A stretch of 64,000 nt of DNA from an uncultured Chloroflexia bacterium (lineage in GTDB: Bacteria; Chloroflexota; Limnocylindria; Limnocylindrales; CSP1-4): assembly GCA_963757055.1 (NCBI GenBank), contig CAVWPX010000007.1, forward strand, positions 5,618 to 69,617, given 5' to 3'. Under the pieces are notes generated by a model. That model was not told where the DNA came from. It worked only from the letters and a program-made list of their open reading frames with translations, and made no database searches. Positions within the stretch are counted from its first letter, which is position 1; each line of letters starts with the position of its first letter. This document shows, piece after piece, positions 48,462 through 62,549 of this stretch. The position numbers and the translations under genes were made by a program.

Positions 48462-49665
48462 ATGAACCGTCCGTTGGCGCTGGGCATCGGGGCCGTGGCG
48501 CTCGTCGTCGTGGTGGGCGGCGCCGTCCTCGCCGGCAACGCGTCGTCCACGCCCAAGCCATCGGGGAGCGGCGAGGCCGTGGCCACGGCGGCGCCCTCCT
48601 CGTCGAACTCGGGCGAGCCCACGACCTCGCCGACGCCGACCGTCTCCCCGACACCGACCGCGGAGCCGACGCCGACCCCGGAGCCGACGCCCGTCCGGGT
48701 CCCCGACCCGCTGACCGGCCGCATGGTCACCGAGGCGGCCGCGAACCGCCGGCCGATCGCGGTGATGATCGACGACCTCGGGCCGGCACGGCCGCAGTCC
48801 GGGTTCAACGCGGCCTCGATCGTCTGGCAGGCGCCCTGCCGAGGGCGGCATCCCGCGCTACATGATGATCTTCAACTCGACGATCCCCGGGCTGGTCGGG
48901 CCGGTCCGCAGCTCGCGCTTCTACTACATCACATGGGCCGCCGAGTGGAAGGCGCTCTACGGGCACGTCGGCGGCTCGCCGCAGGCGATGTCGACGCTCC
49001 AGCAGAAGGGCAGCGGCCAGTACGTCTTCAACGCGGACGAGTTCCGCTGGGGCGGCTACTACTGGCGCATCAAGCAGCGCTTCGCCCCGCACAACATGTA
49101 CACCGACGGGAAGCACCTCCGGCGGCTCGCGGCCAAGGTCGGGGCCAAGGACGGCCCGGTCAAGGCGCACTGGCAGTTCGCCCCGGACGCGCCGCTCGAG
49201 GCGCGGCCGCAGGGCGGCACGATCGTCGTGACCTACCCGCAGAACAAGATCACGTACCGCTACGACCGCGCGAGCAACACCTACCTGCGCTCGGTGACGG
49301 GCGAGGCCAAGCAGATCGACAAGGCCGACGGCAAGCGCGTGGCGCCCAAGAACGTCGTGATCATGAACATGATCTTCGGCCCGCTCAACGACGGCCATCC
49401 GAACAAGCACCGCCTCGAGGCGAACGTGGTCGGGACCGGCAAGGCCTGGATCGCGACGAACGGGAAGACCATCAAGGGCACGTGGCGCAAGAAGTCGAAC
49501 ACCGCGCCCACGCTGTTCTTCGACTCGGCCGGCAAGCCGGTCACGCTGACCGTGGGCCAGACGTTCGTCCAGGTCCTGCGGGTCGGGCAGGGCTACTCGG
49601 CCGTGATCAAGGACGGCAAGGTCCCGACCGCGGCGCCGTCGCCGAGCGCCAGCGCGCCGTCCTGA
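48462..49665 (+). CDS. DUF3048 (YerB-like) exported protein (frameshift near 48840)
   Basis: N-terminal TM, PT-rich linker, DPLTG...RPIAVMIDD...ARPQSG...A.IV, GPVRSSR, RFAPHNMY. Confidence 0.85.
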
Positions 49666-49722: not shown

Positions 49723-50972
49723 TCAGCCGGACCGGCGCCCGACCTCCGCGTAGACGGCCCGCGTCTCGGCGGCCACCTCGGCCCACGTCCGTCGCCCCTT
49801 GGTGGCGCGGCGCTTCGCGGCGGCGGCCAGGCGCCCGTGGACGCGGTCGTCGGCCCAGATCGCCCGCAGGGCCGTGGCCAGCCGGTCCGGGTCGCGCGGC
49901 TCGACGAGGACCCCGGCGTCCCCGACGATCCCGGGCAGGATGCCGACGGCCGACGCGACCACCGGCGTCCCGCAGGCGAGCGCCTCGATCGCGGCCAGCC
50001 CGGCCGCCTCGGACACCACGGGGAGGATGGCCGCGCGGGCGCCGCGCAGGAGCCCGGCCGCCGTCGGCGTGGCCAGGGCCGGCGCGTAGGCCAGGCACTC
50101 GCCGATGCCCTGTCGCGCGGCGGCGCGCGCCAGCGACGCCCGGTCCTCCGGGCTCGCCCCCAGCAGGAGGATCCGCGGCGGCCAGGCGACGTCGTCGGGC
50201 AGGTCGGCCGGCCGGCCGGCCTCGGCGAGGGACGCGAGCGCGTGGAGGAGCGTCGCAAGGTCCTGGCGGGCGTCGTACCGGCCGGGATAGACGAGGTAGC
50301 GACCGGTCAGCCCGAGCCGCTCGCGCTCCGCGGCGGCATCGTCATCGGCCGCGGCGGTCGGTCCGGTCCCCCGGCGCCCGGTCGCCGGGGCGAACGGCGC
50401 CCGTCGGGGCGAGCGGGATCACCCGGACCCGGTCCGGGCGGAGATGGAGCAGGCGGCGGGCCGCGGTCTTCACCTCCGGGCCGGCCACGAGCACCGCGGC
50501 CGCGTCGCGCAGCAGCCGGCCGCGCAGGCGCTGCCCGAACCGCGCGGAGGCGGTGCGGCCGAAGGCCTCGGGCAGCTCCCACGGCGCCAGGTCGAGGAGC
50601 GTCGCGACGATCGGGCAGCCCCGACGCGATCGGCAGCGGTCCCGCGCCGGCCGTGTGGTAGAGCGCGCCGGCGGCCCCGCCGCGATCGGCCCGCCACGCG
50701 GCCCCGAGCGACGCCCCGCGCAGCAGGAACGGGTCGACGGTCATCGCCGCCGAGCGGAGGAGGTGCGTCGGCGGCAGCTGGCGGCGGCCGACGACGTCCA
50801 GGTTCGCGTAGGCCGGCGTCGGGTCGTCGAGGTCGCTGCGCAGCAGGAACGCGAACAATTCGCCGTCGACGGGCGCCTGGTCGAAGGCGCCGAGCAGGCC
50901 GTCGAGATAGGCGGCGGTGACCGGCGCGCGCCCCGGCTCCTGGAGCGGCCTCGCATCGAGGACGACGCGCAT
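49723..50972 (-). CDS. Glycosyltransferase family 4 (multiple frameshifts)
   Basis: MRVVLDARPLQ, YLVYPGRY..R.DL..L, SEAAGLAAIEALACGTPVVAS. Confidence 0.75.
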
Positions 50973-51056
50973 GCCGGGCGACGGGTCCGGCTCTCGCCCG
51001 GCCGCTCCCGAGCGCGCCCTGGCCCAGGGCGTCGGGCGGCGGACCGCCCGGATCGG

Positions 51057-51855
51057 TCATCGTCCGCTGCGGCGCCGCCGCAGCCGGTCGCGCAGCTCCT
51101 CGGCGCGGAGCTGGACCACGACCACCAGCGCTTCCACGATGATCCGCCGCGACATCTTGCTCTGGCCGACGCGGCGGTCGCGGAACGTGATCGGCACCTC
51201 GAGGATGCGCGCGCCGGCCCGGTCCGCCCGGAAGGTCATCTCGATCTGGAAGACGTAGCCGCCGGCGTGGACCCCGTCGAACGGGACCTCGGCGAGCGTC
51301 GACGCTCGCCACGCCTTGAAGCCGCCCGTCAGGTCTCGCGGACCCAGGCGGAGGACCGTCCGCGCGAAGACGCTGCCGCCGCGCGAGATGACCCGGCGGA
51401 ACGAGCGACCAGTCCATGACCCCGCCGCCCGGCGCATAGCGCGAGCCGATGACGACGTCGGCGGCGCCCTGGACGACCGGGGCGATCAGGTCGGGCAGCA
51501 CGGCCGGGTCGTGGCTGAAGTCGGCGTCCATCTGGACGACGATCTCGGCGCCGCCCTCGAGGGCGCGGGCGAAGCCGTCGAGATAGGCGCGGCCCAGGCC
51601 TGCCTTCACGGAGCGGTGGCGGACGCGGATGCGCGCGTCGGCCGACGACATCTCGTCGGCGAGCCGGCCCGTGCCGTCCGGCGACCCGTCGTCGACGACC
51701 AGCAGCGTCGCGCCCGGGAGGGCCTCGAGGATGGCGGCCGCGATCGGGCCGATGTTCTCGGCTTCCTGGTAGGTGGGGAGGACGACCCAGGCGCCCGATC
51801 CGGCCGGGCGGTCGCCGACGGGCGCGCCGGCCCGGGGCTGGGGTGGGGTCGTCAT
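51057..51855 (-). CDS. Polyprenol monophosphomannose synthase (GT2; frameshift near 51410)
   Basis: VLPTYQEAENI, VVDDGSPDGTG, GLGRAY..GF, QMDADFSHDP, DLTGGFKAW, GY.FQIEM, SKMS. Confidence 0.9.
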
Positions 51856-51880
51856 GGCCGGCAAGTGTACGAGCCGCCGC

Positions 51881-54370
51881 TCAACGAGACCGGACGGTCA
51901 CGTTCCGGGCGACCGCGGTCGTGCCGATCCAGCTGGTCGCGGTGATCACGAGCCGATAGGTCCCGGGTCGGGCCCAGGTGCCGGCCGCCGTCTTGCCGTC
52001 CCAGGCCAGGGCGTGCGTCCCCTTCGTCGTGGCGCGGTTCGCCCAGATCGTCCGGACCAGCGTGTTCGCGTGGTAGACCGCGACGGACACCCGCGCGGCC
52101 CGGATCAGCTGGAACCGGGCGCCGGCGGCCCCGGCGCGCGGCTCGAAGGATCCGACCGTCCAGGCCGCCGAGCGGATCGTCCGGTCGACGAGGACCGTCG
52201 CCTCGCGGGCGACCGGGTTGCCGGCACGGTCGACCCCGTCGACCCGCAGCCGGTAGCGGCCGTCGACGACGACCGCGCCGCCCGGACGCGTGCCCTTCCA
52301 GGTCATCGACCAGCGGGACGCCGTGCCGATCGGCCAGCGCCAGAGGGCCGCCCCGTTCCGGTCGAGGAGGCGGACCGTGCCGCTGATCGGCTCGCTGGCC
52401 GTCCAGTGCAGCGTCAGCTGGTCGTTCTGGCCGTTGCCGTCCGGCGTGATGAAGCCCGGCGAGGCCCCCGCGGAGACCACCGGATGCCGCGTGTCGACGA
52501 GCACGTCGAAGCTCCGCGTCGAGCGGTTGTTCGAGGCGTCCGCGGTCCAGATGGTGATCCGGTAGCGCCCGTCGCGGACGACCTTCCCGCCCGTCCCGAC
52601 CCCGTTCCAGGTGAACGTCGCCGCCCGTCCGGGCCGGCTGCCGCTGCGGATCGCCTTCCCGACCTTCGAGCCGCTCAGCGGCGCGACGACGTACCCCCAG
52701 CGGATCAGGCCGGTGGCCGCGACGCTCGCGGTGACCGTGTCCTGCCGCCGGTCGCCGTCCGGCGAGAAGGCCGGCGCGGAGAGCCGCGTGGCGGTCACGG
52801 TCGGCGGGACCTTGTCGGTGATGAACTTGGCCTTGAGCGCCGCGTACAGCTCGGGACGCGTCCCGTCGTAGCCGAGCGCCCAGATGCCGACGCCACGCAG
52901 GCCGACCCGGTTGACCAGGTCGTACTTCGCCCTGAGCGCGGTGGCGTCGTCGTAGTAGAGCTGGCGCCACGGCGTCACGCAGCCGTAGGCGGTGGTGCAG
53001 TTCTGGCGCCGGTAGGCGAGCCACGAGACGCCCTCGACCCGGTCGTACTTGCGCCCGTACGCCCTGGCGAACTCGCGCGCCGTCGCGTACGGGATGGCGA
53101 CCGATGCGCCGTACTTCGTGCCCGAGATGTTCCTCGCGTGCAGGCTCGCGGTCGCGGTCGACCAGGCCCGGCCGTAGTACGGCACGCCGAGGATCACCTT
53201 GGATGCCGGGACGCGGGCGAGGAACGCGGCGACCGTGTCCCCGACGTCGTACGCCGGCCCGCCGATCGGCGCGAGCGAGCCGACCGGGCTCGAGCCGGCC
53301 GTGCGGTAGTCGTAGCCCATGATCACGACGGCGTCGGCGGCGCCCCGCGCCGTCGCGTCCTGGATGGGGTAGTTGCCGATCCAGCCGGTCGTGTCGAAGG
53401 TCAGCTGGTAGCCCTTGTGGACCCGGTTCAGCTGCGTGCGGACCGCCCGGACGAGCGAGGTGAACTCGTCCGAATAGCCCGAGGCGATCGGCTCGAAGTC
53501 GAGGTTCACGCCGTCCGCGCCGCGGTCGCGGACGGCCAGCGCGATCTGGCGTGCGAGCCGGTTGCGGTAGGTGGAGCTGCCCAGCAGCGACTTCTGGCGG
53601 GCCAGCTGGTTCGAGGTCCACGCGAAGCTCTGCACGGTCAGCACGACCCGGGCGCCGCTCCGGTGGGCGGCGTTGATGACGGTGGTCATCCGCGAGCTGG
53701 TCCAGCCGCTCCAGCCGACGGTGGACGAGCCGTCCGGGTCCCGCTTCTGGAGGTTCCCGGTGCCGTCGGCGCCGACGCCGAAGTAGGCCACGGTCGAGAG
53801 CTTCTCCCAGTCGAGCCGGGTGGAGGGGTCGACCAGCTCCCAGTACGGCAGGAACCCGAAGACCTCGCGGCGGAGGCCGCCCGGGTCGACGGCCGCGGCG
53901 AGGCCGAACGTGGGCTGGCCGGCCGTGCTGTCCCAGCTCGCGGTGTCGGCCGCGATGACCGTGGAGGGGTCCACGACCGGTCGGTCGTCGCCGAAGCCGG
54001 CGAGCGCGACCGCGTCGTGGGCGGGATCGGACGCCGCGGTCGCGGCGTCGCGCATCGTGCCGCCCGAGACGCGCCCGGAGGGGAGGACGGTCGGCGACCC
54101 GCCGTCGACGGCCCAGTGATCGTCGGCGCGCGGCGTGAACGGGACGCTGACCCGCGCGCCGGGCTTGAAGGCGATGCGGTCGCCGGCATGGGCGAGCGCC
54201 TCGAGGTACTGGACGGTCGGCTGGATCCCCGGTGTCGCCGGTCCGACGGCGCTGTCCGCTTCGGCCGCGTCCGCGGTGCCCGGCAGCAGTCCGCCGAGCA
54301 CCAGCAGCGCGAGGCCCACAGCGAGGCGACGCGGGGTGGCAGACGGCAGGCGGCGGGGGGCGATCGGCAC
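51881..54370 (-). CDS. Secreted GH18 glycoside hydrolase with C-terminal FlgD-type Ig-like domains
   Basis: Signal peptide, EVFGFLPYW, DGVNLDFE, IMGYDY, ILGVPYYG, GIWALGYD; then SPDGD/TPDGNG Ig modules. Confidence 0.88.
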   Translation of the reverse strand: MPIAPRRLPSATPRRLAVGLALLVLGGLLPGTADAAEADSAVGPATPGIQPTVQYLEALAHAGDRIAFKPGARVSVPFTPRADDHWAVDGGSPTVLPSGRVSGGTMRDAATAASDPAHDAVALAGFGDDRPVVDPSTVIAADTASWDSTAGQPTFGLAAAVDPGGLRREVFGFLPYWELVDPSTRLDWEKLSTVAYFGVGADGTGNLQKRDPDGSSTVGWSGWTSSRMTTVINAAHRSGARVVLTVQSFAWTSNQLARQKSLLGSSTYRNRLARQIALAVRDRGADGVNLDFEPIASGYSDEFTSLVRAVRTQLNRVHKGYQLTFDTTGWIGNYPIQDATARGAADAVVIMGYDYRTAGSSPVGSLAPIGGPAYDVGDTVAAFLARVPASKVILGVPYYGRAWSTATASLHARNISGTKYGASVAIPYATAREFARAYGRKYDRVEGVSWLAYRRQNCTTAYGCVTPWRQLYYDDATALRAKYDLVNRVGLRGVGIWALGYDGTRPELYAALKAKFITDKVPPTVTATRLSAPAFSPDGDRRQDTVTASVAATGLIRWGYVVAPLSGSKVGKAIRSGSRPGRAATFTWNGVGTGGKVVRDGRYRITIWTADASNNRSTRSFDVLVDTRHPVVSAGASPGFITPDGNGQNDQLTLHWTASEPISGTVRLLDRNGAALWRWPIGTASRWSMTWKGTRPGGAVVVDGRYRLRVDGVDRAGNPVAREATVLVDRTIRSAAWTVGSFEPRAGAAGARFQLIRAARVSVAVYHANTLVRTIWANRATTKGTHALAWDGKTAAGTWARPGTYRLVITATSWIGTTAVARNVTVRSR

Positions 54371-54502: not shown

Positions 54503-56803
54503 CTAGTGGAGGGGCAGGCTCACCTGGGTCCAGGACGAGCGCCCGGCCGCGTCCGCGCCGTACACGCGGAACTTGATCGTGCCCGCCCCACCACCGGTCT
54601 TGATCGTCAGGACGGCCTGGTAGCGGCCCGGGCCGAGCCGGACCATGGCCACGCTCCAGGTGGCCTTGCCGGGCTGGACGACCGACACGCGAGGCGCCGC
54701 GTTCTGCGGCTCGGCGGCGGTCGCGGAGATGGTGACCTTCTGGCCGCGGGCCGGCGTCGTGTCCGAGGCCGCGATGGCGTACGCGTTCATCTCGAACGCG
54801 GCCGAGTGGGTGGTCGTGGTCAGGTCGTCGGTCGCCACGACGTACGAGGTGTACTTGCCGATCGGCAACCGCGCCGAGTGGTCGAGCTTCATCCCGTCGA
54901 AGGTGAGGGAGTAGGTGCCCGCAGCCTGCGGCTGGGCGTCCACGAGCGTCTCCACGATGGCCCCGGCGCTGTTGCGGATCGTCCAGGTGACGGTCGCCGG
55001 CCGGGCGAGGCGATAGCCGAGCGCCGTCACCGTCGCGTAGGCGTCGCCGTCCTGCGGGAAGAACACGGCCTTCGACGACGTCACGAAGCCCAGGGTCGTG
55101 CTGAGGCGGACGGTGCGCGTGACCTGCGGCGACGGATTGCCCGCCGCGTCGGCCAGCGAGAGCCGGATGTCGTACTCGCCGTCGGGGGCGATGGCGCCAT
55201 GCACGTCGCGGCCGTCCCACGGCATCGCCTTCGAGCCGGCCGCCACGGGCACGATGTCCTTGCGGATGACCGCGCCGGCGCCGTTCACGACCCGCATCGT
55301 CAGCGTGCCGGCCTCGGGCAGCGCGGCCGTCAGGCTCACGGTGTCGCGGCTGCCGTCGCCGTTCGGGCTGAACCACGGCTCGGGATCCGCGGCCGGGGTG
55401 ACCGTCCCGAGCACGGGTGCGACCGTGTCGATGGTGAGCTTGCCCGCGCTCGAGCTCGACGCGTTGCCCCACGCGTCCACGGCGTCGATGCTGACGGTGT
55501 ACGTGCCGTCCGCCGCGGTGCCGCCGCCGGACGCGCCGTCCCAGGTCAGGCTGAACGCGGCGCCGTTCCCGGTCGCGGTCTTGACGGTGCCGCCGCCGGC
55601 GTCCTTGACCGTGGCGGTCCAGGCCGCCGTCTCGGAGAGGTTGCCCGTCACGGTCGCGGTGTCGCCGGTGCCGTCGCCGTTGGGCGAGAACCGGGCCGTG
55701 CCGCCCTCGACGCCCCAGACGCGCGGGGCGACGCTGTCCTTCGGGACGAGATCGCCGGCGACGACCCAGCCGTCGATCGAGGCGTCGTCGATGCCCTGGA
55801 CGTGGACCGCGGTCCCGGCGACGGTGGCGGCGGCCGTGCTGCTGACGACGCGCAGGCGGGTGCCCGCCGGGAGGATGGCCGGCGGCGCGCCCTCGGCGTC
55901 CGGGGTCATGCTCGGGCTCTCGAAGATCTCCGCCCCGGCGGCGCCGGCCTGGGCATTGCCCGGGACGACGAGCTTGGCCGGATCGGTGCCGGTGTCGGCC
56001 GAGGTGGCGCCCGTGACGGCGTCGGTGGTGAGGCCGGGCTTGGCGACCAGCGAGCGGTAGTAGCCGGCCGTCGTGCTGTCGGTGTCGGTGTAGGCCGTGG
56101 CGCCCGGCGTCCGGGTCGAGGCGAACGCCTTCACGTGGTTGTTGAAATTCGGGGCGCTGCGCCACACGTCCTCGATGGTCGTGTGCATCGTGAAGAGGGC
56201 CCGGATGTACGGCTCGGGGCTGCCGTGGCCGTCGGCGATGACCGCGCGGGCGTTGCCCTTCAGGAAGCCGGCGCCGTAGTTGTCGACGCGCTGGCGGGCC
56301 ACGGTGACCGACGGGGCCGCGTTGCCCGGCTCGGAGTTGCCCGAGGCATAGCAGAGGTGGCCCAGGATGATGACCGCGTTCGGCGCCAGGGCGAGGGTGG
56401 AGACGTAGGGCTCGCCGTAGTACTTGTTGTTGTAGTCGCCGGCGCCGGCCGTGGCGTTGAGCCCGAACCCGTCCTTGGTGGCGTACTTGGCGTCGTAGGT
56501 GTACGGGCTGGGCCAGCCGTTCCCGTGGCCGAAGTAGATGAGGATCGACGCACCCTTGGCGGCCGCCTGCACCTTCGCCCAGGTCGCGTTCGGGCTGTAG
56601 ACCTTGACGACGTTCGAGGTGTACTTGATCGCCTCGGCGTAGGCCCGGTCGGCATCGGCGCGATATCCGGCGGTCGCTCCGTGCGTGGCCCCGACGACGA
56701 TCACCACCTTGGCTCCGGCGGGAGCGGCCGCGCTCGCGGCCGGGGCGAACGCGCCCAGGGCGGCGAGCATGGCGAGGACGAGGGCGGCGACGGGTCTGCG
56801 CAA
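54503..56803 (-). CDS. Secreted multidomain protein: putative clan CD cysteine peptidase domain + SH3-like + FlgD-type Ig repeats
   Basis: Signal peptide; ILIYFGHG and VIILGHLC motifs; GTRLRVV...GWV; FSPNGDG twice and FFPQDGD modules with WDG motifs. Confidence 0.7.
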   Translation of the reverse strand: MRRPVAALVLAMLAALGAFAPAASAAAPAGAKVVIVVGATHGATAGYRADADRAYAEAIKYTSNVVKVYSPNATWAKVQAAAKGASILIYFGHGNGWPSPYTYDAKYATKDGFGLNATAGAGDYNNKYYGEPYVSTLALAPNAVIILGHLCYASGNSEPGNAAPSVTVARQRVDNYGAGFLKGNARAVIADGHGSPEPYIRALFTMHTTIEDVWRSAPNFNNHVKAFASTRTPGATAYTDTDSTTAGYYRSLVAKPGLTTDAVTGATSADTGTDPAKLVVPGNAQAGAAGAEIFESPSMTPDAEGAPPAILPAGTRLRVVSSTAAATVAGTAVHVQGIDDASIDGWVVAGDLVPKDSVAPRVWGVEGGTARFSPNGDGTGDTATVTGNLSETAAWTATVKDAGGGTVKTATGNGAAFSLTWDGASGGGTAADGTYTVSIDAVDAWGNASSSSAGKLTIDTVAPVLGTVTPAADPEPWFSPNGDGSRDTVSLTAALPEAGTLTMRVVNGAGAVIRKDIVPVAAGSKAMPWDGRDVHGAIAPDGEYDIRLSLADAAGNPSPQVTRTVRLSTTLGFVTSSKAVFFPQDGDAYATVTALGYRLARPATVTWTIRNSAGAIVETLVDAQPQAAGTYSLTFDGMKLDHSARLPIGKYTSYVVATDDLTTTTHSAAFEMNAYAIAASDTTPARGQKVTISATAAEPQNAAPRVSVVQPGKATWSVAMVRLGPGRYQAVLTIKTGGGAGTIKFRVYGADAAGRSSWTQVSLPLH

Positions 56804-56833
56804 ACGGGCGCTCCTGCGACGGGGATCGGTCGA

Positions 56834-57571
56834 TCAGGTCCTCAGGCTCGTGGACGGGCGCGGTTCGCGACATCGCGGGATGGTCCCGCCACCTCGTAGG
56901 CCCATCGGGGCGGGCTGGTGCGGTCGCGGGCGGGGCGATGGGGTTGGGGTGCGGTCTGGGGTCCGCCCCGTCATTGTCCCCCGTGCGCGCAAGCGCACCA
57001 CCAGATCGGCCAGCGTCGGCGCGGTGCGGTCCCGGTCCGAGACGATCGGGCGCCCGTCGGCGGTCGAATCGACGGCGGGCCAGCCGACCCCGGCGATCGG
57101 GTCGTCCCAGGCGAAGCCCAGCTCGTCGCTGCCGTCGTACGGGTTCGTGACGAGGTACAGCATCCCGAGCGCCTCGAGGGCCAGGAACCCGTGCGCCACC
57201 CCGGCCGGGATCACGACCCACTCGTCCTCGCGGAGCTCGCGCGTCTCGACGACCGGCTGGTCGCCCGTCCCCCGCAGGATCGGCCGGAGGTCGACCAGCG
57301 CCACGAACGCACGCCCCGAGGCGACGACCCAGTAGTCGAGCTGGCGGCGGTGGTAGTGCAGGCCGCGCAGGACGCCCGGCGCGGAGGTCGACAGGTTCGC
57401 CTGGACGAACGTCGGCGTTGCCGACGGGTCCGCGCCCGCGTCGCCCGGCTCGATCGCCCCGAACGCGTCGGCCCGCCACAGCTCGCGGAACGCGCCGCGC
57501 GCATCGGCCATCCGCGCGACCGCCCCGTAGCGGACGCCGGGCAGCGACGACGGGGCCCGATCGAGGCTCAT
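56834..57571 (-). CDS. rfbC: dTDP-4-dehydrorhamnose 3,5-epimerase (true stop probably near 56971)
   Basis: DARG.FRE, FVQAN.S.S..GVLRGLHYH, VALVDLR, IPAGVAHGF, WDDP. Confidence 0.9.
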   Translation of the reverse strand: MSLDRAPSSLPGVRYGAVARMADARGAFRELWRADAFGAIEPGDAGADPSATPTFVQANLSTSAPGVLRGLHYHRRQLDYWVVASGRAFVALVDLRPILRGTGDQPVVETRELREDEWVVIPAGVAHGFLALEALGMLYLVTNPYDGSDELGFAWDDPIAGVGWPAVDSTADGRPIVSDRDRTAPTLADLVVRLRARGTMTGRTPDRTPTPSPRPRPHQPAPMGLRGGGTIPRCREPRPSTSLRT

Positions 57572-58487
57572 CGCGTGCCCGCCGCCTGCCGCCGTGCCCG
57601 CTCGAGCGCGGGGGCGTAGTCGGCCATCGCGTCGGGCCACGGCCGGAGCGGCTCGCCGGACGGCAGCGGCGTCGCGGCCAGGACGCCCCAGCGCGGCGGG
57701 ACCGACGCGCGTTCCCAGGTCGTCCCGGGGACCGGCTCGACGCGGACCGGCAGCCCGAACCGCCCGACGAGGTACTCGGCCCACAGCGCCCGCGTGGCGG
57801 TCAGCCCGTTGACGACGTGGTGGATGCCGGCGTGCGCGTCCTCGGCCAGGAGCTCCACGATCGCGTCGGCGGCATCGTGCGTGTAGGTCGGGCGTGCCCC
57901 ACTCGTCGGCGACGGCGCGGAGCGGCTCCCCGGCGGCGGCCGCCCGGTCCGCCGCCGCGAGGATCTTCCGCGGGAAGTCCGGCTCGCCCGGGCCGAACAG
58001 CCATGCCGTGCGCACGATGCCGAGGCGCGCGCCTGCGCTCGCACCGGCGTACGCGGCGGTCGCCGCGCGCTCCCCGGCGAGCTTCGAGGCGCCGTACGGA
58101 TTGCCCGGCGCGGGCTGGTCATCGGGGCCGTACCCGACGCCATCGGTCCGCGTCCCGTCGAAGACCTCGTTGGTCGACACCATCACGAGGTCGATGCCGC
58201 GCGCCGCGCAGCTCGCCGGCGAGGACGCCGGTCGCGGTGCCGTTGCGGGCGAGCGCGCGGTCCGGCTCTCGGGCGCAGCCGTCCACATCGGTCCAGGCCG
58301 CGACGTGCACCACGACCTCCGGGCGGTCGCGGTCCAGCGCGGCCGCCACGCCCTCGGGCGCATCGAGGTCCAGCTCGCGCCGGCCCCAGGCGAGCGGCCC
58401 GCCCGGGCCGGGGAACGGCGCATCGGCGAGCGCACTGACGAGCGCCGACCCGAGCCGCCCGGTCGCGCCGGTCACGGCGATCCGCAT
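57568..58487 (-). CDS. rfbD: dTDP-4-dehydrorhamnose reductase (multiple frameshifts)
   Basis: [51 protein letters not shown]. Confidence 0.88.
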
Positions 58488-59530
58488 CAGCCGGCCGAGC
58501 GGAGGCGCGCCCCGTACTGGCGCTCGTAGTAGGCGTCCCAGTCGTCCGAGCGGGCGGCCCGCCACCAGGCCTCGTTGGCGAGGTACCAGTCGATCGTCTC
58601 CGCCAGGCCCGGTCGAACGGGGTCTGCGGCCGCCAGCCGAGCGCCGCGATCCGCGTGCCGTCCATGGCGTACCGCCGGTCGTGGCCGGGGCGGTCCTCGA
58701 CGTGGCGGACCAGCGACCACGGCTTGCCGAGGTGCTCGAGCAGGAGCCGGACGATCTCCCGGTTCTCCATCTCGGACCCGCCGGGCACGTTGTAGGTCTC
58801 GCCGGTCGTCCCGTGCCGCAGCACCGTGTCGATCGCCGCCGCGTGGTCGGCGACGTAGAGCCAGTCGCGTCGCTGTCGCCCGTCGCCGTAGAGCGGCAGC
58901 GGCCGGTCGTCGATGGCGTTGGTCACGAACAGCGGGATCAGCTTCTCCGGGTGGTGGTACGGGCCGTAGGTGTTCGCGCCGCGGGTCACCACCGCGTCGA
59001 GGCCGTGGGTCACGACGTAGCTGCGGACCAGCAGCTCCCCCGCTGCCTTCGCGGCCGCGTAGGGCGAGCGCGGCGCGAGGCGATCGCCCTCGACCGACGC
59101 CCCGGTCTCGACCGAGCCGTAGACCTCGTCGGTCGAGACCTGCAGGAAGCGCGGCCGGGCCGGCGCCGTCCGGCAGGCCTCCAGCAGCACGTGCACGCCG
59201 ATCACCCCGGTCCGCAGGAACGCCTCCGGGTCGAGGATGGAGCGGTCGACGTGCGTCTCCGCGGCGACGTTGATCACCGCGTCCGCGTCGGCGACGAGCG
59301 GCGTCACGACAGCCGGGTCCGCGATGTCGCCGCGCACGAAGCGCAGCCGGGCCGCCATCTCCGGGTCGTCGAGGACCGGGAGCCAGGTTGGCCTCGTTGC
59401 CGGCGTAGGTCAGCTTGTCCAGGACGGTGATCTCGGTGCCGTCCCGGCGGCCGAGGACGTCGCGGACGTAGCACGAGCCGATGAACCCGGCGCCGCCGGT
59501 GACCAGCAGGCGGCGGTACCGGTCGGTCAC
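58487..59530 (-). CDS. rfbB: dTDP-glucose 4,6-dehydratase (frameshifts)
   Basis: [64 protein letters not shown]. Confidence 0.93.
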
Positions 59531-60289
59531 GACGGCCGGCGCTCCACGGGTGGTGCCAGCCGGCCGGCGGCGTCGTCGTCGCGGGCCAGCTCGGAGGCGC
59601 GCAGCAGCGACGGCACCGTCCCGGCATCGGTCCAGTGGCCCTCGTAGACCGGGGCGTACAGCCGTCCGTCGGGGACGTAGTGGTTCAGCACGTCCGTGAT
59701 CTCGAACTCGCCGCGACCCGAGGGCGACAGCCCGTCGATGACGTCGAAGGCGTCCGGCCGCAGGAAGTAGACCCCGATGGGGATGAGGTCGCTCTTGGGC
59801 GTCTCGGGCTTCTCCTCGAAGCCGATCACGCGTCCGTCGCGGTCCAGCTCGGCGACGCCGAACCGGCCCGGATCGGGGACCTGGTAGAGCAGCGTGCCGG
59901 CCCCGTACGGCCCCGCCTCGAAGGCGTTCGCGACCGGTGCGAGGGCCGGGCCGCGGAGGACGTTGTCGCCGAGGATGCAGCAGAACGCGTCGTCGCCGAC
60001 GAAGTCGCGGGCGAGCCCGATGGCGTGGGCGATGCCGAGCGCGCCGGGCTGGTAGCGGTAGGTCAGGTCGAGCCCGAAGTGCGTGCCGTCGGCGAGCAGC
60101 TCCACGACGTCGCCCGACGCCCTTCCCGCCGACGATGACCATGACCTCGCGGATGCCCATCCCCGCCAGCGTCTCGATGGGGTAGTAGATCATCGGCCGG
60201 TCGTAGATCGGCAGCAGGTGCTTGTTGGTGACGATCGTCAGGGGATAGAGCCTGGTCGCGGTCCCGCCCGCCAGGACGATCCCCTTCAT
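59527..60289 (-). CDS. rfbA: Glucose-1-phosphate thymidylyltransferase (short RmlA type; frameshift near 60120)
   Basis: [17 protein letters not shown]...[48 protein letters not shown]. Confidence 0.93.
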
Positions 60290-60328
60290 CGGATGGGCCT
60301 TCATCGCGCCCAGCCTACCAGCCGGGGA

Positions 60329-61294
60329 TCAGGGTTTCGGGGTCGATCCGGCGTGCCCCGACGGTGCCGGCGTGTAGCACGGCTGCTCGCCCTGGGGCAG
60401 CACATCCGTGCCGCTGCAGTCGACCGGCTGCTGGTTGATCGGCGGCAGCCCGCCCTCGTAGTCGAGCACGACGAGGACGTACTCGAGCTTGTCGAGGTCC
60501 GCGGTCGGGCGGAGGTAGGCGGTCTGGACGACGTCGTTGGCGTCGAGCCGGACGTCGACGACCTGGCCGATGAGGAGGCCCTTGGGGAAGGGCGAGCGGA
60601 TGCCGCCCGCGAGCTCGATGCCGGCCGTGACGACCTCGTCGCCCAGCGAGATCTTCTCGCCCGAGTCGATCTGGCTCATGACCATCACGCCGCCCAGCTG
60701 GCCGACGACCTCGCCGCGGGCCGCGCTCGGGACGAGCTGGCCGACGACGGTCGAGTCGGCATCGGTCAGCAGCGTGACGGTCGCGCTGTCGGGCCCGACC
60801 GCGGTGACCCGGCCGGCGAGCGCGCCGCCGGTGGTGACCACGCTGTCGCCGAGCTCGATGGCGGCGTTGGTCCCCTTGTCGATCGTCACGACCCGGCGGA
60901 GCTCGAGCGAATCGCGGCCGATCACGGCCGCCGCGGCGGTCTTGTGGTTGAAGCCGGCCTGGAGCTGGAGGAGGCCGGTCAGCAGGTCGTTCTCGCGGCG
61001 GATCTCGTCGACCTGCGTGTTCTCGGTGGCCAGTCGCTCGTTCTCGTCGCGGAGCTGGGCGTTGTCGGTCCGCAGCCGGTCGATCTCGGTGATCGCGGTC
61101 GCCACCGAGGCGATCCCGCCGGCGACGCTGTCGAGCGCGCCCTGGATCGGCCGGAAGGCGTAGCCCACGCCGCTCTGGAGGTCGCGGACGCCCGGGTTCG
61201 ACGAGAAGGCCATCATCAGGACGGTCACGACCAGCAGCACCGTGAACACGATGCCGCGCCGCCGCGCCGCCCGATTGGCGAAGGCCGAGCTCAT
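60329..61294 (-). CDS. mreC: Rod shape-determining protein MreC
   Basis: TM, coiled coil (LRDENERL...ENDLL), AAVIGRD, IDKG, GRV, GDEVVTAG, FPKGLLIG.V. Confidence 0.92.
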   Translation of the reverse strand: MSSAFANRAARRRGIVFTVLLVVTVLMMAFSSNPGVRDLQSGVGYAFRPIQGALDSVAGGIASVATAITEIDRLRTDNAQLRDENERLATENTQVDEIRRENDLLTGLLQLQAGFNHKTAAAAVIGRDSLELRRVVTIDKGTNAAIELGDSVVTTGGALAGRVTAVGPDSATVTLLTDADSTVVGQLVPSAARGEVVGQLGGVMVMSQIDSGEKISLGDEVVTAGIELAGGIRSPFPKGLLIGQVVDVRLDANDVVQTAYLRPTADLDKLEYVLVVLDYEGGLPPINQQPVDCSGTDVLPQGEQPCYTPAPSGHAGSTPKP

Positions 61295-61319
61295 CGCAGG
61301 ATCCCCGTCATCGCGTGCC

Positions 61320-62372
61320 TCAGCGCGGCGGCCGCGAGTAGGTCTCGGCGACCAGCACGCGGTCCATCCCGTCGAGCTCCTCGAGCACGATCCCGGTCCC
61401 GCGGGCCACGCAGGTCAGCGGGTCGTCGGCGACGTGGACCGGCATCTGGGTCGCCTCCGCCACGCGCCGGTCGAGGCCGGCGAGGAGCGCGCCGCCACCG
61501 GCCAGCACGATGCCCTGGTCCATGATGTCGGCGACGAGCTCCGGCGGGGTCTCCTCGATGGTGTCCTTGACCGTGTCGACGATCTGCGCGACCGACGGCT
61601 CGATCGCCTCGCGGATCTGGTCGGCGCCGACCTCGACGCTGCGCGGCAGACCGGTCAGCAGGTCGCGGCCGCGGAGGGTCACGCGCTGCGCGTCCCACTC
61701 GCCGGGGTAGGCCGAGGCGATGGCGATCTTGATGTCCTCGGCCGTGCGCTCGCCGAGGAAGAGGTTGTACTCGCGCCGGGCGAACGTGACGATGTCCTGG
61801 TCCATCTCGTCGCCGCCGATGCGGATCGAGCGCGAGACCACGATCCCGCCGAGGCTGAGGACCGCGACCTCGGTCGTCCCGCCGCCGATGTCGACGATGA
61901 GGCTGCCCGACGGCTCGCTGACGGGGAGGCCGGCCCCGATCGCCGCGGCCATCGGCTCCTCGATGAGGCGGGCCCAGCGGGCGCCGGCGTTGAGGGCGGC
62001 GTCGCGGACGGCGCGCTTCTCGACCTCGGTCACGCCCGACGGGATCCCGAGGAGCATCCGCGGCCGCGGGATGAGCCCGACGCGGTCGTGGACCCGGTTC
62101 ACGAAGTACTTGATCATCTGCTCGGTGACGTCGAAGTCGCTGATGACGCCGTCGCGCAGGGGCCGGATCGCGATGATGTTCGCGGGCGTCCGGCCGACCA
62201 TCCGCTTGGCCTCGGCGCCGATGGCCAGGACCTTCCTGGTCTTGGCGTCGATCGCCACGACCGACGGCTCGCTCATGACGATGCCGCGGTTGCGGACATG
62301 GACCAGGGTGTTGGCGGTCCCGAGGTCGATTCCGATGTCGCGGGAGAAGAGGCCGAGGATCCGGTCGATCAT
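61320..62372 (-). CDS. mreB: Rod shape-determining protein MreB
   Basis: DIGIDLGTANT, EPSVVA, RPLRDGVI.DF, IEEPMAAAIGAGL, DIGGGTTE, GIVLAGGGALL. Confidence 0.97.
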   Translation of the reverse strand: MIDRILGLFSRDIGIDLGTANTLVHVRNRGIVMSEPSVVAIDAKTRKVLAIGAEAKRMVGRTPANIIAIRPLRDGVISDFDVTEQMIKYFVNRVHDRVGLIPRPRMLLGIPSGVTEVEKRAVRDAALNAGARWARLIEEPMAAAIGAGLPVSEPSGSLIVDIGGGTTEVAVLSLGGIVVSRSIRIGGDEMDQDIVTFARREYNLFLGERTAEDIKIAIASAYPGEWDAQRVTLRGRDLLTGLPRSVEVGADQIREAIEPSVAQIVDTVKDTIEETPPELVADIMDQGIVLAGGGALLAGLDRRVAEATQMPVHVADDPLTCVARGTGIVLEELDGMDRVLVAETYSRPPR

Positions 62373-62549
62373 GGTCGGGGGGCGCGTCCTTGCAGCGTCG
62401 GTCAGGTCCCGGCGCGGCCACCGCGAAGCGAAGCGGGTCGCGCGAGATGGGCGCACGGATGGGGAAAGCCCGGGCAGTATACCCGGTCACCCCCGGACCT
62501 CCCCTCAGCGGCCCAGCCTCGCGGCCCCGCGGCGCGGGATCCCGTGCCG

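Follow-up and report, generated by a model that had tools for sequence, protein, structure and literature searches.

A putative clan CD-like cysteine peptidase family at a conserved cell-envelope locus of the class Limnocylindria

What does the N-terminal part of a secreted protein do when Pfam and NCBIfam recognize only the C-terminal half of its 766 residues? The question is raised by the open reading frame 54503-56803 (minus strand) in a 64,000-nucleotide stretch of contig CAVWPX010000007.1, hereafter the window, from an uncultured soil/freshwater Chloroflexota bacterium (assembly GCA_963757055.1). It is the sole frame across this interval with a gene-like codon bias (G+C content of 0.97 at third codon positions; the window has ~73% G+C), and encodes a multidomain protein that consists of a signal peptide, a domain of residues 28-262, an SH3-like domain, three FlgD-type immunoglobulin-like (FlgD-Ig) modules and a fourth Ig-like module. 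Our favored answer, held with moderate confidence, is that the protein is a Sec-exported, cell-envelope-associated cysteine peptidase of the caspase/hemoglobinase fold (MEROPS clan CD), the founding member of an unannotated family in the class Limnocylindria. Fold, position and conservation point to Cys151 and His93 as its putative catalytic pair; the reaction would be hydrolytic and the substrate would lie in the envelope.

No Pfam or NCBIfam model reached its curated cut-off over residues 28-262 (positions 56018-56722, minus strand), and searches of the PDB sequences with the single domain, a full-family profile and a domain-only profile returned no meaningful match. The domain is indeed unannotated, as the original prediction, made from the sequence alone, had it: public sources name its homologues “flagellar hook assembly protein FlgD” (Joint Genome Institute annotation), “FlgD immunoglobulin-like domain containing protein” or “hypothetical”, and our literature search found no paper describing the family of residues 28-262. 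A flagellar identity was rejected, for the best NCBIfam FlgD equivalog reaches 68.7 bits where 230 are required and matches the Ig modules only; since the match is confined to the Ig domain and lies far under the equivalog cut-offs, the FlgD name is an over-annotation. Below the cut-offs, a recurrent signal was seen. When 27 family members were compared singly with 24,736 Pfam models at E ≤ 10, the only families matched by more than one member were Peptidase_C25 (nine members, best E 0.0023), CHAT, itself a caspase-fold group (four, best E 7e-4), and Peptidase_C50 (four), and the remaining six matches were singletons. The Peptidase_C25 match spans α1 to the His motif, and a faint NCBIfam match to PorU, a sortase of the type IX secretion system (T9SS), covers the same stretch and likewise ends at the His motif.

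Modelling of residues 28-290 by AlphaFold2, with an alignment of 123 diverse homologues (42-76% identity), yielded a mean predicted local distance difference test score (pLDDT) of 93.5 and a predicted template-modelling score of 0.88, the model being uncertain only in the linker past residue ~265. Structural similarity search using Foldseek against the PDB revealed that the model best matches the secreted C11 protease of Bacteroides thetaiotaomicron (6n9j_B), with an E-value of 5.3e-6, a probability of 1.00, 267 aligned columns and a template-modelling (TM) score of 0.41. The next matches are the separase protease domains 5mz6, 9hn0, 5fby and 9hm7, followed by legumains, by the C11 enzyme in its apo form and by the peptide asparaginyl ligase 7f5j; clan CD peptidases make up the majority of the top ten. 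Among the top matches in the viral library BFVD are giant-virus caspase-domain and metacaspase-like proteins.

Clan CD enzymes share an α/β/α sandwich core, built on a β-sheet with the caspase strand order, in which loops L3 and L4 carry the catalytic dyad, L3 also bears a small sheet, and the core is flanked by five helices (McLuskey and Mottram, PMC4357240). The elements of the model run in the order β1 (33-37), α1, β2, α2, β3 (87-91), His93, a small β-hairpin, a short helix, β4 (143-148) and Cys151, past which come α4, β5, α5, β6 and two more strands. Both this order and the best matches, to C11, C50 and C13 enzymes and viral caspase-domain models, agree with the clan CD fold, and residues 28-262 are thus predicted to fold like caspases, clostripain and gingipains. 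The caspase-like fold, which the original prediction had named as a test of itself, is what the model predicts.

The two candidate catalytic residues occupy the places of the clan CD dyad in the strand order of the model. His93, the candidate general base (codon CAC, positions 56525-56527, minus strand), lies in the stretch ILIYFGHGNGW, with its G-H-G-N-G motif right after β3; as in the clan CD His-Gly arrangement, ILIYFG-H93-G94 follows strand 60-64 in model numbering. Cys151, the candidate nucleophile (codon TGC, positions 56351-56353, minus strand), lies in VIILGHLCYASG (LCYASG) right after β4, where AVIILGHL-C151 follows strand 116-121 in model numbering, and it is the only cysteine among the 766 residues. 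Both codons were found exactly where the original prediction had put them, 58 residues apart and each behind a hydrophobic stretch.

Conservation of the pair, the second test named beforehand, turned out likewise. Of the 244 homologues that cover the domain, 239 retain His93 and 238 retain Cys151 (~98%); G92, G96 and P98 are invariant, and G94 (243/244), Y152, G155 and R172 nearly so. The G-H-G motif and the Cys are also retained in 10/10 distant relatives from the sister family and the two outlying genomes, whose identity in the regions aligned by the genome search is 31-56%. In the eight from the sister family, the Cys motif is N-A-C-Y (T-C-Y in one), which is the Ala-Cys typical of clan CD. 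Five sequences from the representative search (P0194, P0201, P0223, P0252 and P0259) have Arg for His, so that GRG replaces GHG, and are also devoid of the Cys (S, A, A, R and D). Because they form a single clade, we count them as one loss followed by free drift at the partner position. Such a joint loss is the pattern expected of a catalytic pair turned pseudo-enzyme, and the members of this clade are probably pseudo-enzymes that retain the fold. It also lends indirect support to the view that the two side chains would lie next to each other at the C-terminal edge of the sheet, as in clan CD. Overall, the pair of His and Cys motifs is beyond chance. The conserved Thr44, Glu158 and Asp/Glu191 are located on loops which, in other members of clan CD, form the lining of the pocket; judging by position, they may have that role here.

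A variation was seen in the sister-family loci L115, L116, L119 and L122-L124, which use the canonical N-A-C-Y. They carry an insertion of 20-30 residues after YxGE with two extra cysteines (VYCGE...YCGG or FCSGG), which suggests a disulphide-stapled loop close to the active site.

Several observations weigh against a clan CD peptidase. Every clan CD sequence match is sub-threshold: Peptidase_C25 (PF01364) reaches 15.4-15.7 bits against a cut-off of 23, and PorU (NF033707) 9.2 bits against 420. Local hhalign comparison of the domain family with a C11 alignment of 18 Chloroflexota loci was not significant (E 0.063, probability below 1%). The His strand was the sole segment aligned in the first run (ILIYFGHGNGWP against ALIIWDHGGSWL), the addition of distant family members brought no improvement, and sequence-level homology to C11 is therefore not demonstrable; a search of the source genome with PF03415 (C11) gave no match either. 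At the structural level, the TM-scores to solved clan CD structures are modest (0.28-0.41), a single PDB match has an E-value ≤ 0.001, and generic flavodoxin/Rossmann-like folds are interleaved from E ~0.01; given this interleaving and the modest TM-scores, the relationship to clan CD is a distant one. The subfamily of the window has Leu before the Cys, where Ala is canonical. In C11, C14 and MALT1, the S1 pocket is chiefly determined by the residue two positions ahead of the Cys, which is Asp177 in PmC11, Asp462 in MALT1 and Gln184 in caspase-7 (PMC4850288, PMC4357240); here it is His (72%), Asn or Arg, so that the P1 specificity is unreadable from the sequence. Finally, the gene context described below speaks for an envelope role in general and singles out no particular substrate. 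From the sub-threshold Pfam scores and the non-significant C11 comparison it follows that the domain lies outside C11, C25 and any other Pfam-defined family, and it is a family of its own with a clan-level resemblance to clan CD.

How does the domain compare with the established members of that clan? As of March 2025, clan CD comprised the eight MEROPS families C11, C123, C13, C14, C25, C50, C80 and C84, and additions to it rest on this type of evidence plus enzymology (PMC12445089). The C11 enzymes (clostripain, PmC11 and the B. thetaiotaomicron structures 6n9j/6nag) are closest in fold. They are secreted bacterial proteins too, export in our case being read from the sequence, and share an H-G-x-G/S-W motif after the His strand (GHGNGW here, DHGASW or DHGGSW in Chloroflexota C11) and a Cys after the next core strand, at a His-Cys spacing of the same order (58 compared to ~46-47 residues). 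However, beyond the absence of significant sequence or profile similarity, the S1 aspartate of the C11 motif D-A-C is replaced by His, Asn or Arg, the mostly helical C-terminal domain of C11 has no counterpart, its place being taken by the SH3-like and Ig modules, and no autoprocessing site is evident. The C25 gingipains and PorU provide the most frequent weak Pfam match and the weak match over the same stretch, respectively, and are surface-exposed proteins in which the catalytic domain is joined to Ig-like domains, as predicted here; they differ in that the scores stay under the cut-offs and that the T9SS-type match in the tail of our protein is internal.

Separase (C50), legumain and the peptide asparaginyl ligases (C13), and CHAT proteins recur among the fold matches or the weak Pfam matches and have the same strand-His-Gly and strand-Cys arrangement, but the similarity is at the fold level only and the domain contexts are unrelated; separases and C13 enzymes occur in eukaryotes, whereas CHAT proteins are mostly intracellular. 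Wall hydrolases that combine an NlpC/P60 or CHAP domain with SH3b and repeats have the same order of a Cys/His domain, an SH3-like domain and repeats, in a cell-wall gene context as well, whereas their catalytic fold is papain-like (clan CA) in contrast to the clan CD-like fold predicted here. A bacterial precedent for placing a His/Cys family in clan CD is YabG, a sporulation protease that was proposed for the clan in 2025 on its dyad and structure, despite lacking sequence similarity to other clan CD families (PMC12445089). YabG also acts on envelope proteins, those of the spore coat; however, it is intracellular to the sporangium, is devoid of SH3 or Ig tails, and showed no similarity to the present family in Pfam scans.

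The family is large and, as far as it was traced, narrowly distributed. A word-indexed protein search retrieved 2936 proteins among 8000 candidates scored, and an exhaustive search among representatives clustered at 50% identity gave at least 1154 clusters with E ≤ 0.001, of which 417 reached E ≤ 1e-30. In the representative search, the domain nearly always comes right behind the signal peptide, followed by tails of variable length. A Pfam scan of ten representatives of other lengths for further fused domains gave only Ig-type domains or nothing, one apparent RmlC fusion aside. Apparent fusions to RmlC (PF00908) occur in the public gene calls P0042 (1111 residues) and P0174 (474 residues); these are most likely read-through gene-calling artefacts of the 30-nucleotide junction between rmlC and the peptidase-like gene.

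Among GTDB species genomes, at least 591 relatives came to light in a scan, and the 80 best are all from metagenome-assembled genomes (MAGs). Their labels are Chloroflexota, Candidatus Limnocylindrales or Limnocylindria, or “uncultured Chloroflexia”, in addition to a few of Anaerolineaceae and Thermomicrobiales and one of Verrucomicrobiia, which we take as mislabelling or binning noise because the gene order is identical. Across the phylum, 401 genomes were sampled evenly. Within the window's own family, all 24 sampled genomes have the domain, as do 15 of 16 in a sister family of the same class; it is missing from four small genomes of another family of the order and from two of a further family, and just two genomes elsewhere have it. 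The family thus appears confined to the class Limnocylindria, with one to three copies of the domain per genome. The source genome has a second copy (locus L002, contig C3, ~36.9-37.7 kb, minus strand) of 50% identity, which consists of signal peptide and domain only and has no SH3/Ig tail; it keeps GHGNG and LCYAAG intact and is located between an amidohydrolase-like gene and a DEAD-box helicase gene.

The gene itself (54503-56803, minus strand, with its stop codon at 54503-54505) has the length of its closest homologues, which count 765-768 residues. Its TTG start is preceded at 7 nucleotides by a putative ribosome-binding site, AGGAG (56811-56815, minus strand). Residues 1-26 (MRRPVAALVLAMLAALGAFAPAASAA; positions 56726-56803, minus strand) contain two arginines, a hydrophobic run and ASA/AAP, and read as a Sec signal peptide, in line with the original prediction. 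A scan for promoters and terminators over 51.5-57.5 kb detected nothing, a result that is uninformative because the genome has 74% G+C.

Behind the catalytic domain and a low-complexity linker (residues 263-282), approximately residues 283-354 (positions 55742-55957, minus strand) are predicted to form an SH3-like β-barrel, which had been proposed from the sequence before. AlphaFold2 modelling of residues 270-362 with 43 homologous segments (pLDDT 80) gave a small all-β domain; its foremost Foldseek matches are exclusively SH3 domains, and the top 50 nearly so (Src and Fyn among them), with probabilities of 0.85-1.0 and weak E-values of 0.03-0.6. They include the SH3b-bearing wall hydrolases LytB and NlpC2. 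The Pfam model SH3_3 weakly matches four of 44 members (best E 0.0033), the copy in the window not being among them. Altogether, an SH3-like fold has fair support from the model, whereas placement in a named SH3b family (PF08239 and relatives) does not.

The rest of the protein is a tail of Ig-like modules, for which the FlgD Ig-like model (PF13860) scores 83.2 bits against a cut-off of 27, in three stretches that overlap with matches to Big_13 and CHU_C. Pfam together with internal and tail alignments delimits module 1 (residues 362-465, positions 55409-55720), module 2 (466-570, 55094-55408) and module 3 (571-668, 54800-55093, with the best FlgD_ig stretch at 593-659), and internal alignment adds a fourth, C-terminal Ig-like module (669-766, 54506-54799), all on the minus strand. 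In the three modules described earlier as FSPNGDG-type, the motif is exact at residues 372 and 478, the third module opening with FFPQDGDA; the fourth module had gone unmentioned. A T9SS C-terminal sorting domain (CHU_C, TIGR04131) was considered and rejected: the match covers residues 372-441, over an Ig module, and being internal rather than C-terminal is most simply explained by Ig-module similarity, type IX secretion genes not having been searched for.

Which genes accompany this protein? In the window, radC, mreB, mreC, rmlA, rmlB, rmlD, rmlC, the peptidase-like gene, a gene for a glycoside hydrolase family 18 (GH18) protein with FlgD_ig modules, and glycosyltransferase genes of families GT2 and GT4 follow one another, all on the minus strand. 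Upstream, rmlC (dTDP-4-dehydrorhamnose 3,5-epimerase, 56834-57547, minus strand) ends 30 nucleotides ahead of the start of the peptidase-like gene. Downstream, the secreted GH18 glycosidase (51881-54370, minus strand) has a tail of three FlgD-Ig modules collinear with that of the peptidase-like protein (32% identity over ~300 residues, E 2e-22), the fourth module having no counterpart there. Its sequence has ~150 residues without assignment between the signal peptide and the GH18 domain, which could be a pro-segment, and its motif DGVNLDFE has Asn for the middle Asp of DxxDxDxE, with D-x-E retained. Further on, an opposite-strand DUF3048 gene (48769-49665, plus strand) is as conserved in position as the cluster, in the same orientation at most related loci. 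Past it come sugar-modifying genes, namely those for a hexapeptide acyltransferase, a DegT aminotransferase, a Gfo/Idh/MocA oxidoreductase, a UDP-sugar dehydrogenase and a UDP-GlcNAc 2-epimerase.

Several neighbours are split across frames in the window, with three frames for rmlD and two for each of rmlA, rmlB, GT2 and GT4 (56834-60304 and 49723-51864), and the peptidase-like gene is intact. As rmlA is one intact 261-residue frame in a 91%-identical relative (L035), the splits point to indel errors of long-read MAG assembly, pseudogenes being less likely.

The arrangement was compared across the 80 best-matching species loci of at least 591, each neighbour being scored only where the sequence extended far enough. 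A GH18 gene comes next downstream, in the same orientation, in 61 of 65 loci and is followed by GT2 in 56 of 59; rmlC is directly upstream in 56 of 75, and a same-strand mreC occurs no farther than 8 kb away in 51 of 55. In another seven of the 75 (L076, L082, L093, L099, L102, L107 and L109), the peptidase-like gene comes right after mreC, no rml genes standing between them (compare window positions 60329-62486, minus strand). The order mreBC-rmlABDC-peptidase-like gene-GH18-GT2-GT4 is kept in most of the 80 species, and in the class Limnocylindria this is a core envelope locus with fixed gene positions.

These data allow us to propose how the protein might work. Going by the fold, Cys151 at the end of β4 would attack the carbonyl of a peptide bond, His93 at the end of β3, in the invariant G-H-G motif, would protonate the leaving amine, and water would resolve the thioester intermediate. 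The SH3-like domain and the four Ig-like modules might serve as a stalk or wall-binding tail. Since the GH18 enzyme and the peptidase-like protein have three collinear FlgD-Ig modules in common, they are probably delivered to the same envelope layer. The nearly fixed gene order suggests that the two enzymes act on a layer produced by the cluster, be it of wall-linked protein, peptide or glycopolymer, and process or remodel it during cell elongation. A part in the maturation or cross-linking of a surface layer is suggested by a single line of evidence, the conserved cell-envelope gene context.

The same fold and dyad could alternatively serve a transpeptidase or ligase, in which the thioester is resolved by an amine of peptidoglycan, of a wall glycopolymer linker or of a protein, so as to attach or cross-link surface proteins. 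Clan CD has several such enzymes, including PorU (a C25-like T9SS sortase), GPI8 and the peptide asparaginyl ligases of C13; the ligase 7f5j is among our fold matches and PorU is the weak NCBIfam match. The location of the gene in a wall-polymer biosynthesis cluster beside mreBC fits this alternative, and the occurrence of the three-module tail on two different enzymes would suit a shared handling step. Yet the sequence does not separate a ligase from a hydrolase, no sorting motif common to candidate substrates was identified, and the CHU_C match sits inside an Ig module rather than at the C-terminus. Moreover, 24 of 31 genomes in the window's family encode classical sortases (PF04203), the source genome having two, so there is no vacant anchoring role; the idea that the protein replaces a missing sortase was rejected for the same reason. 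We regard a transpeptidase as unlikely compared to the hydrolytic peptidase proposed above.

On a par with it, and hence also unlikely, is an endopeptidase or amidase of peptidoglycan stem peptides. Such an autolysin would act alongside the elongation machinery of MreBC and the glycan hydrolase GH18, and would bind peptidoglycan through its SH3-like domain. A catalytic domain followed by an SH3-like domain and repeats is the layout of many wall hydrolases, and LytB and NlpC2 are among the matches of the SH3-like model. The gene's place right after mreC in seven loci, and the presence of mreC within 8 kb in 51 of 55, would suit such a role, as would a partner from the GH18 family, some members of which act on spore-cortex peptidoglycan. 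On the other hand, the SH3 similarity, with its weak E-values, is at the fold level only, and the known cysteine peptidases of the wall are NlpC/P60 or CHAP enzymes (clan CA) or YkuD. We know of no clan CD enzyme that cleaves peptidoglycan peptides, with their D-amino acids and iso-peptide bonds. This alternative is nonetheless a sub-case of the envelope peptidase favored here and does not contradict it.

Rather doubtful is the notion that the peptidase-like protein, GH18, mreBC, rmlABCD and GT2/GT4 together form a lineage-specific wall-assembly module, in which the clan CD enzyme would act as a transpeptidase that links peptides or proteins to either peptidoglycan or a wall polymer containing rhamnose. 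If true, cell-wall construction would have its first dedicated clan CD enzyme, a counterpart of PorU in a monoderm and independent of the T9SS.

Least probable of all is that residues 28-262 form no peptidase but a generic three-layer α/β/α (flavodoxin/Rossmann-like) binding domain or a non-proteolytic thiol enzyme, keeping His and Cys for, e.g., metal or ligand binding: the generic matches from E ~0.01, with TM-scores like those of the clan CD matches other than C11, the non-significant C11 profile comparison and the absence of any above-threshold family match would fit, but the single strong fold match is to a clan CD peptidase, as are most of the top ten, the viral library independently gives caspase-domain proteins, the only recurrent weak Pfam matches out of 24,736 models are three caspase-fold families, His and Cys stand exactly at the clan CD dyad places in the strand order, and the two were lost together in one clade.

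What, then, would a clan CD peptidase of this kind mean? The finding matters mostly for peptidase classification, for the correction of a widespread “FlgD” mis-annotation, and as a handle on the cell envelope of Limnocylindria. Recognition of a further clan CD family is uncommon, YabG having been proposed only in 2025 (PMC12445089), and the present family, with more than 590 matches in GTDB species genomes, would be a large one; it is lineage-restricted, and its members are publicly labelled “FlgD” or “hypothetical”. Thousands of “FlgD” labels would be corrected by a model for residues 28-262 in Pfam, NCBIfam or MEROPS. Limnocylindria are widely recovered as MAGs from soils and fresh waters, and as every relative found is a MAG, their envelope is essentially undescribed. 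A core exported pair of peptidase and glycosidase, fixed in position beside mreBC and the rhamnose pathway, would offer a tractable entry to that envelope through heterologous expression.

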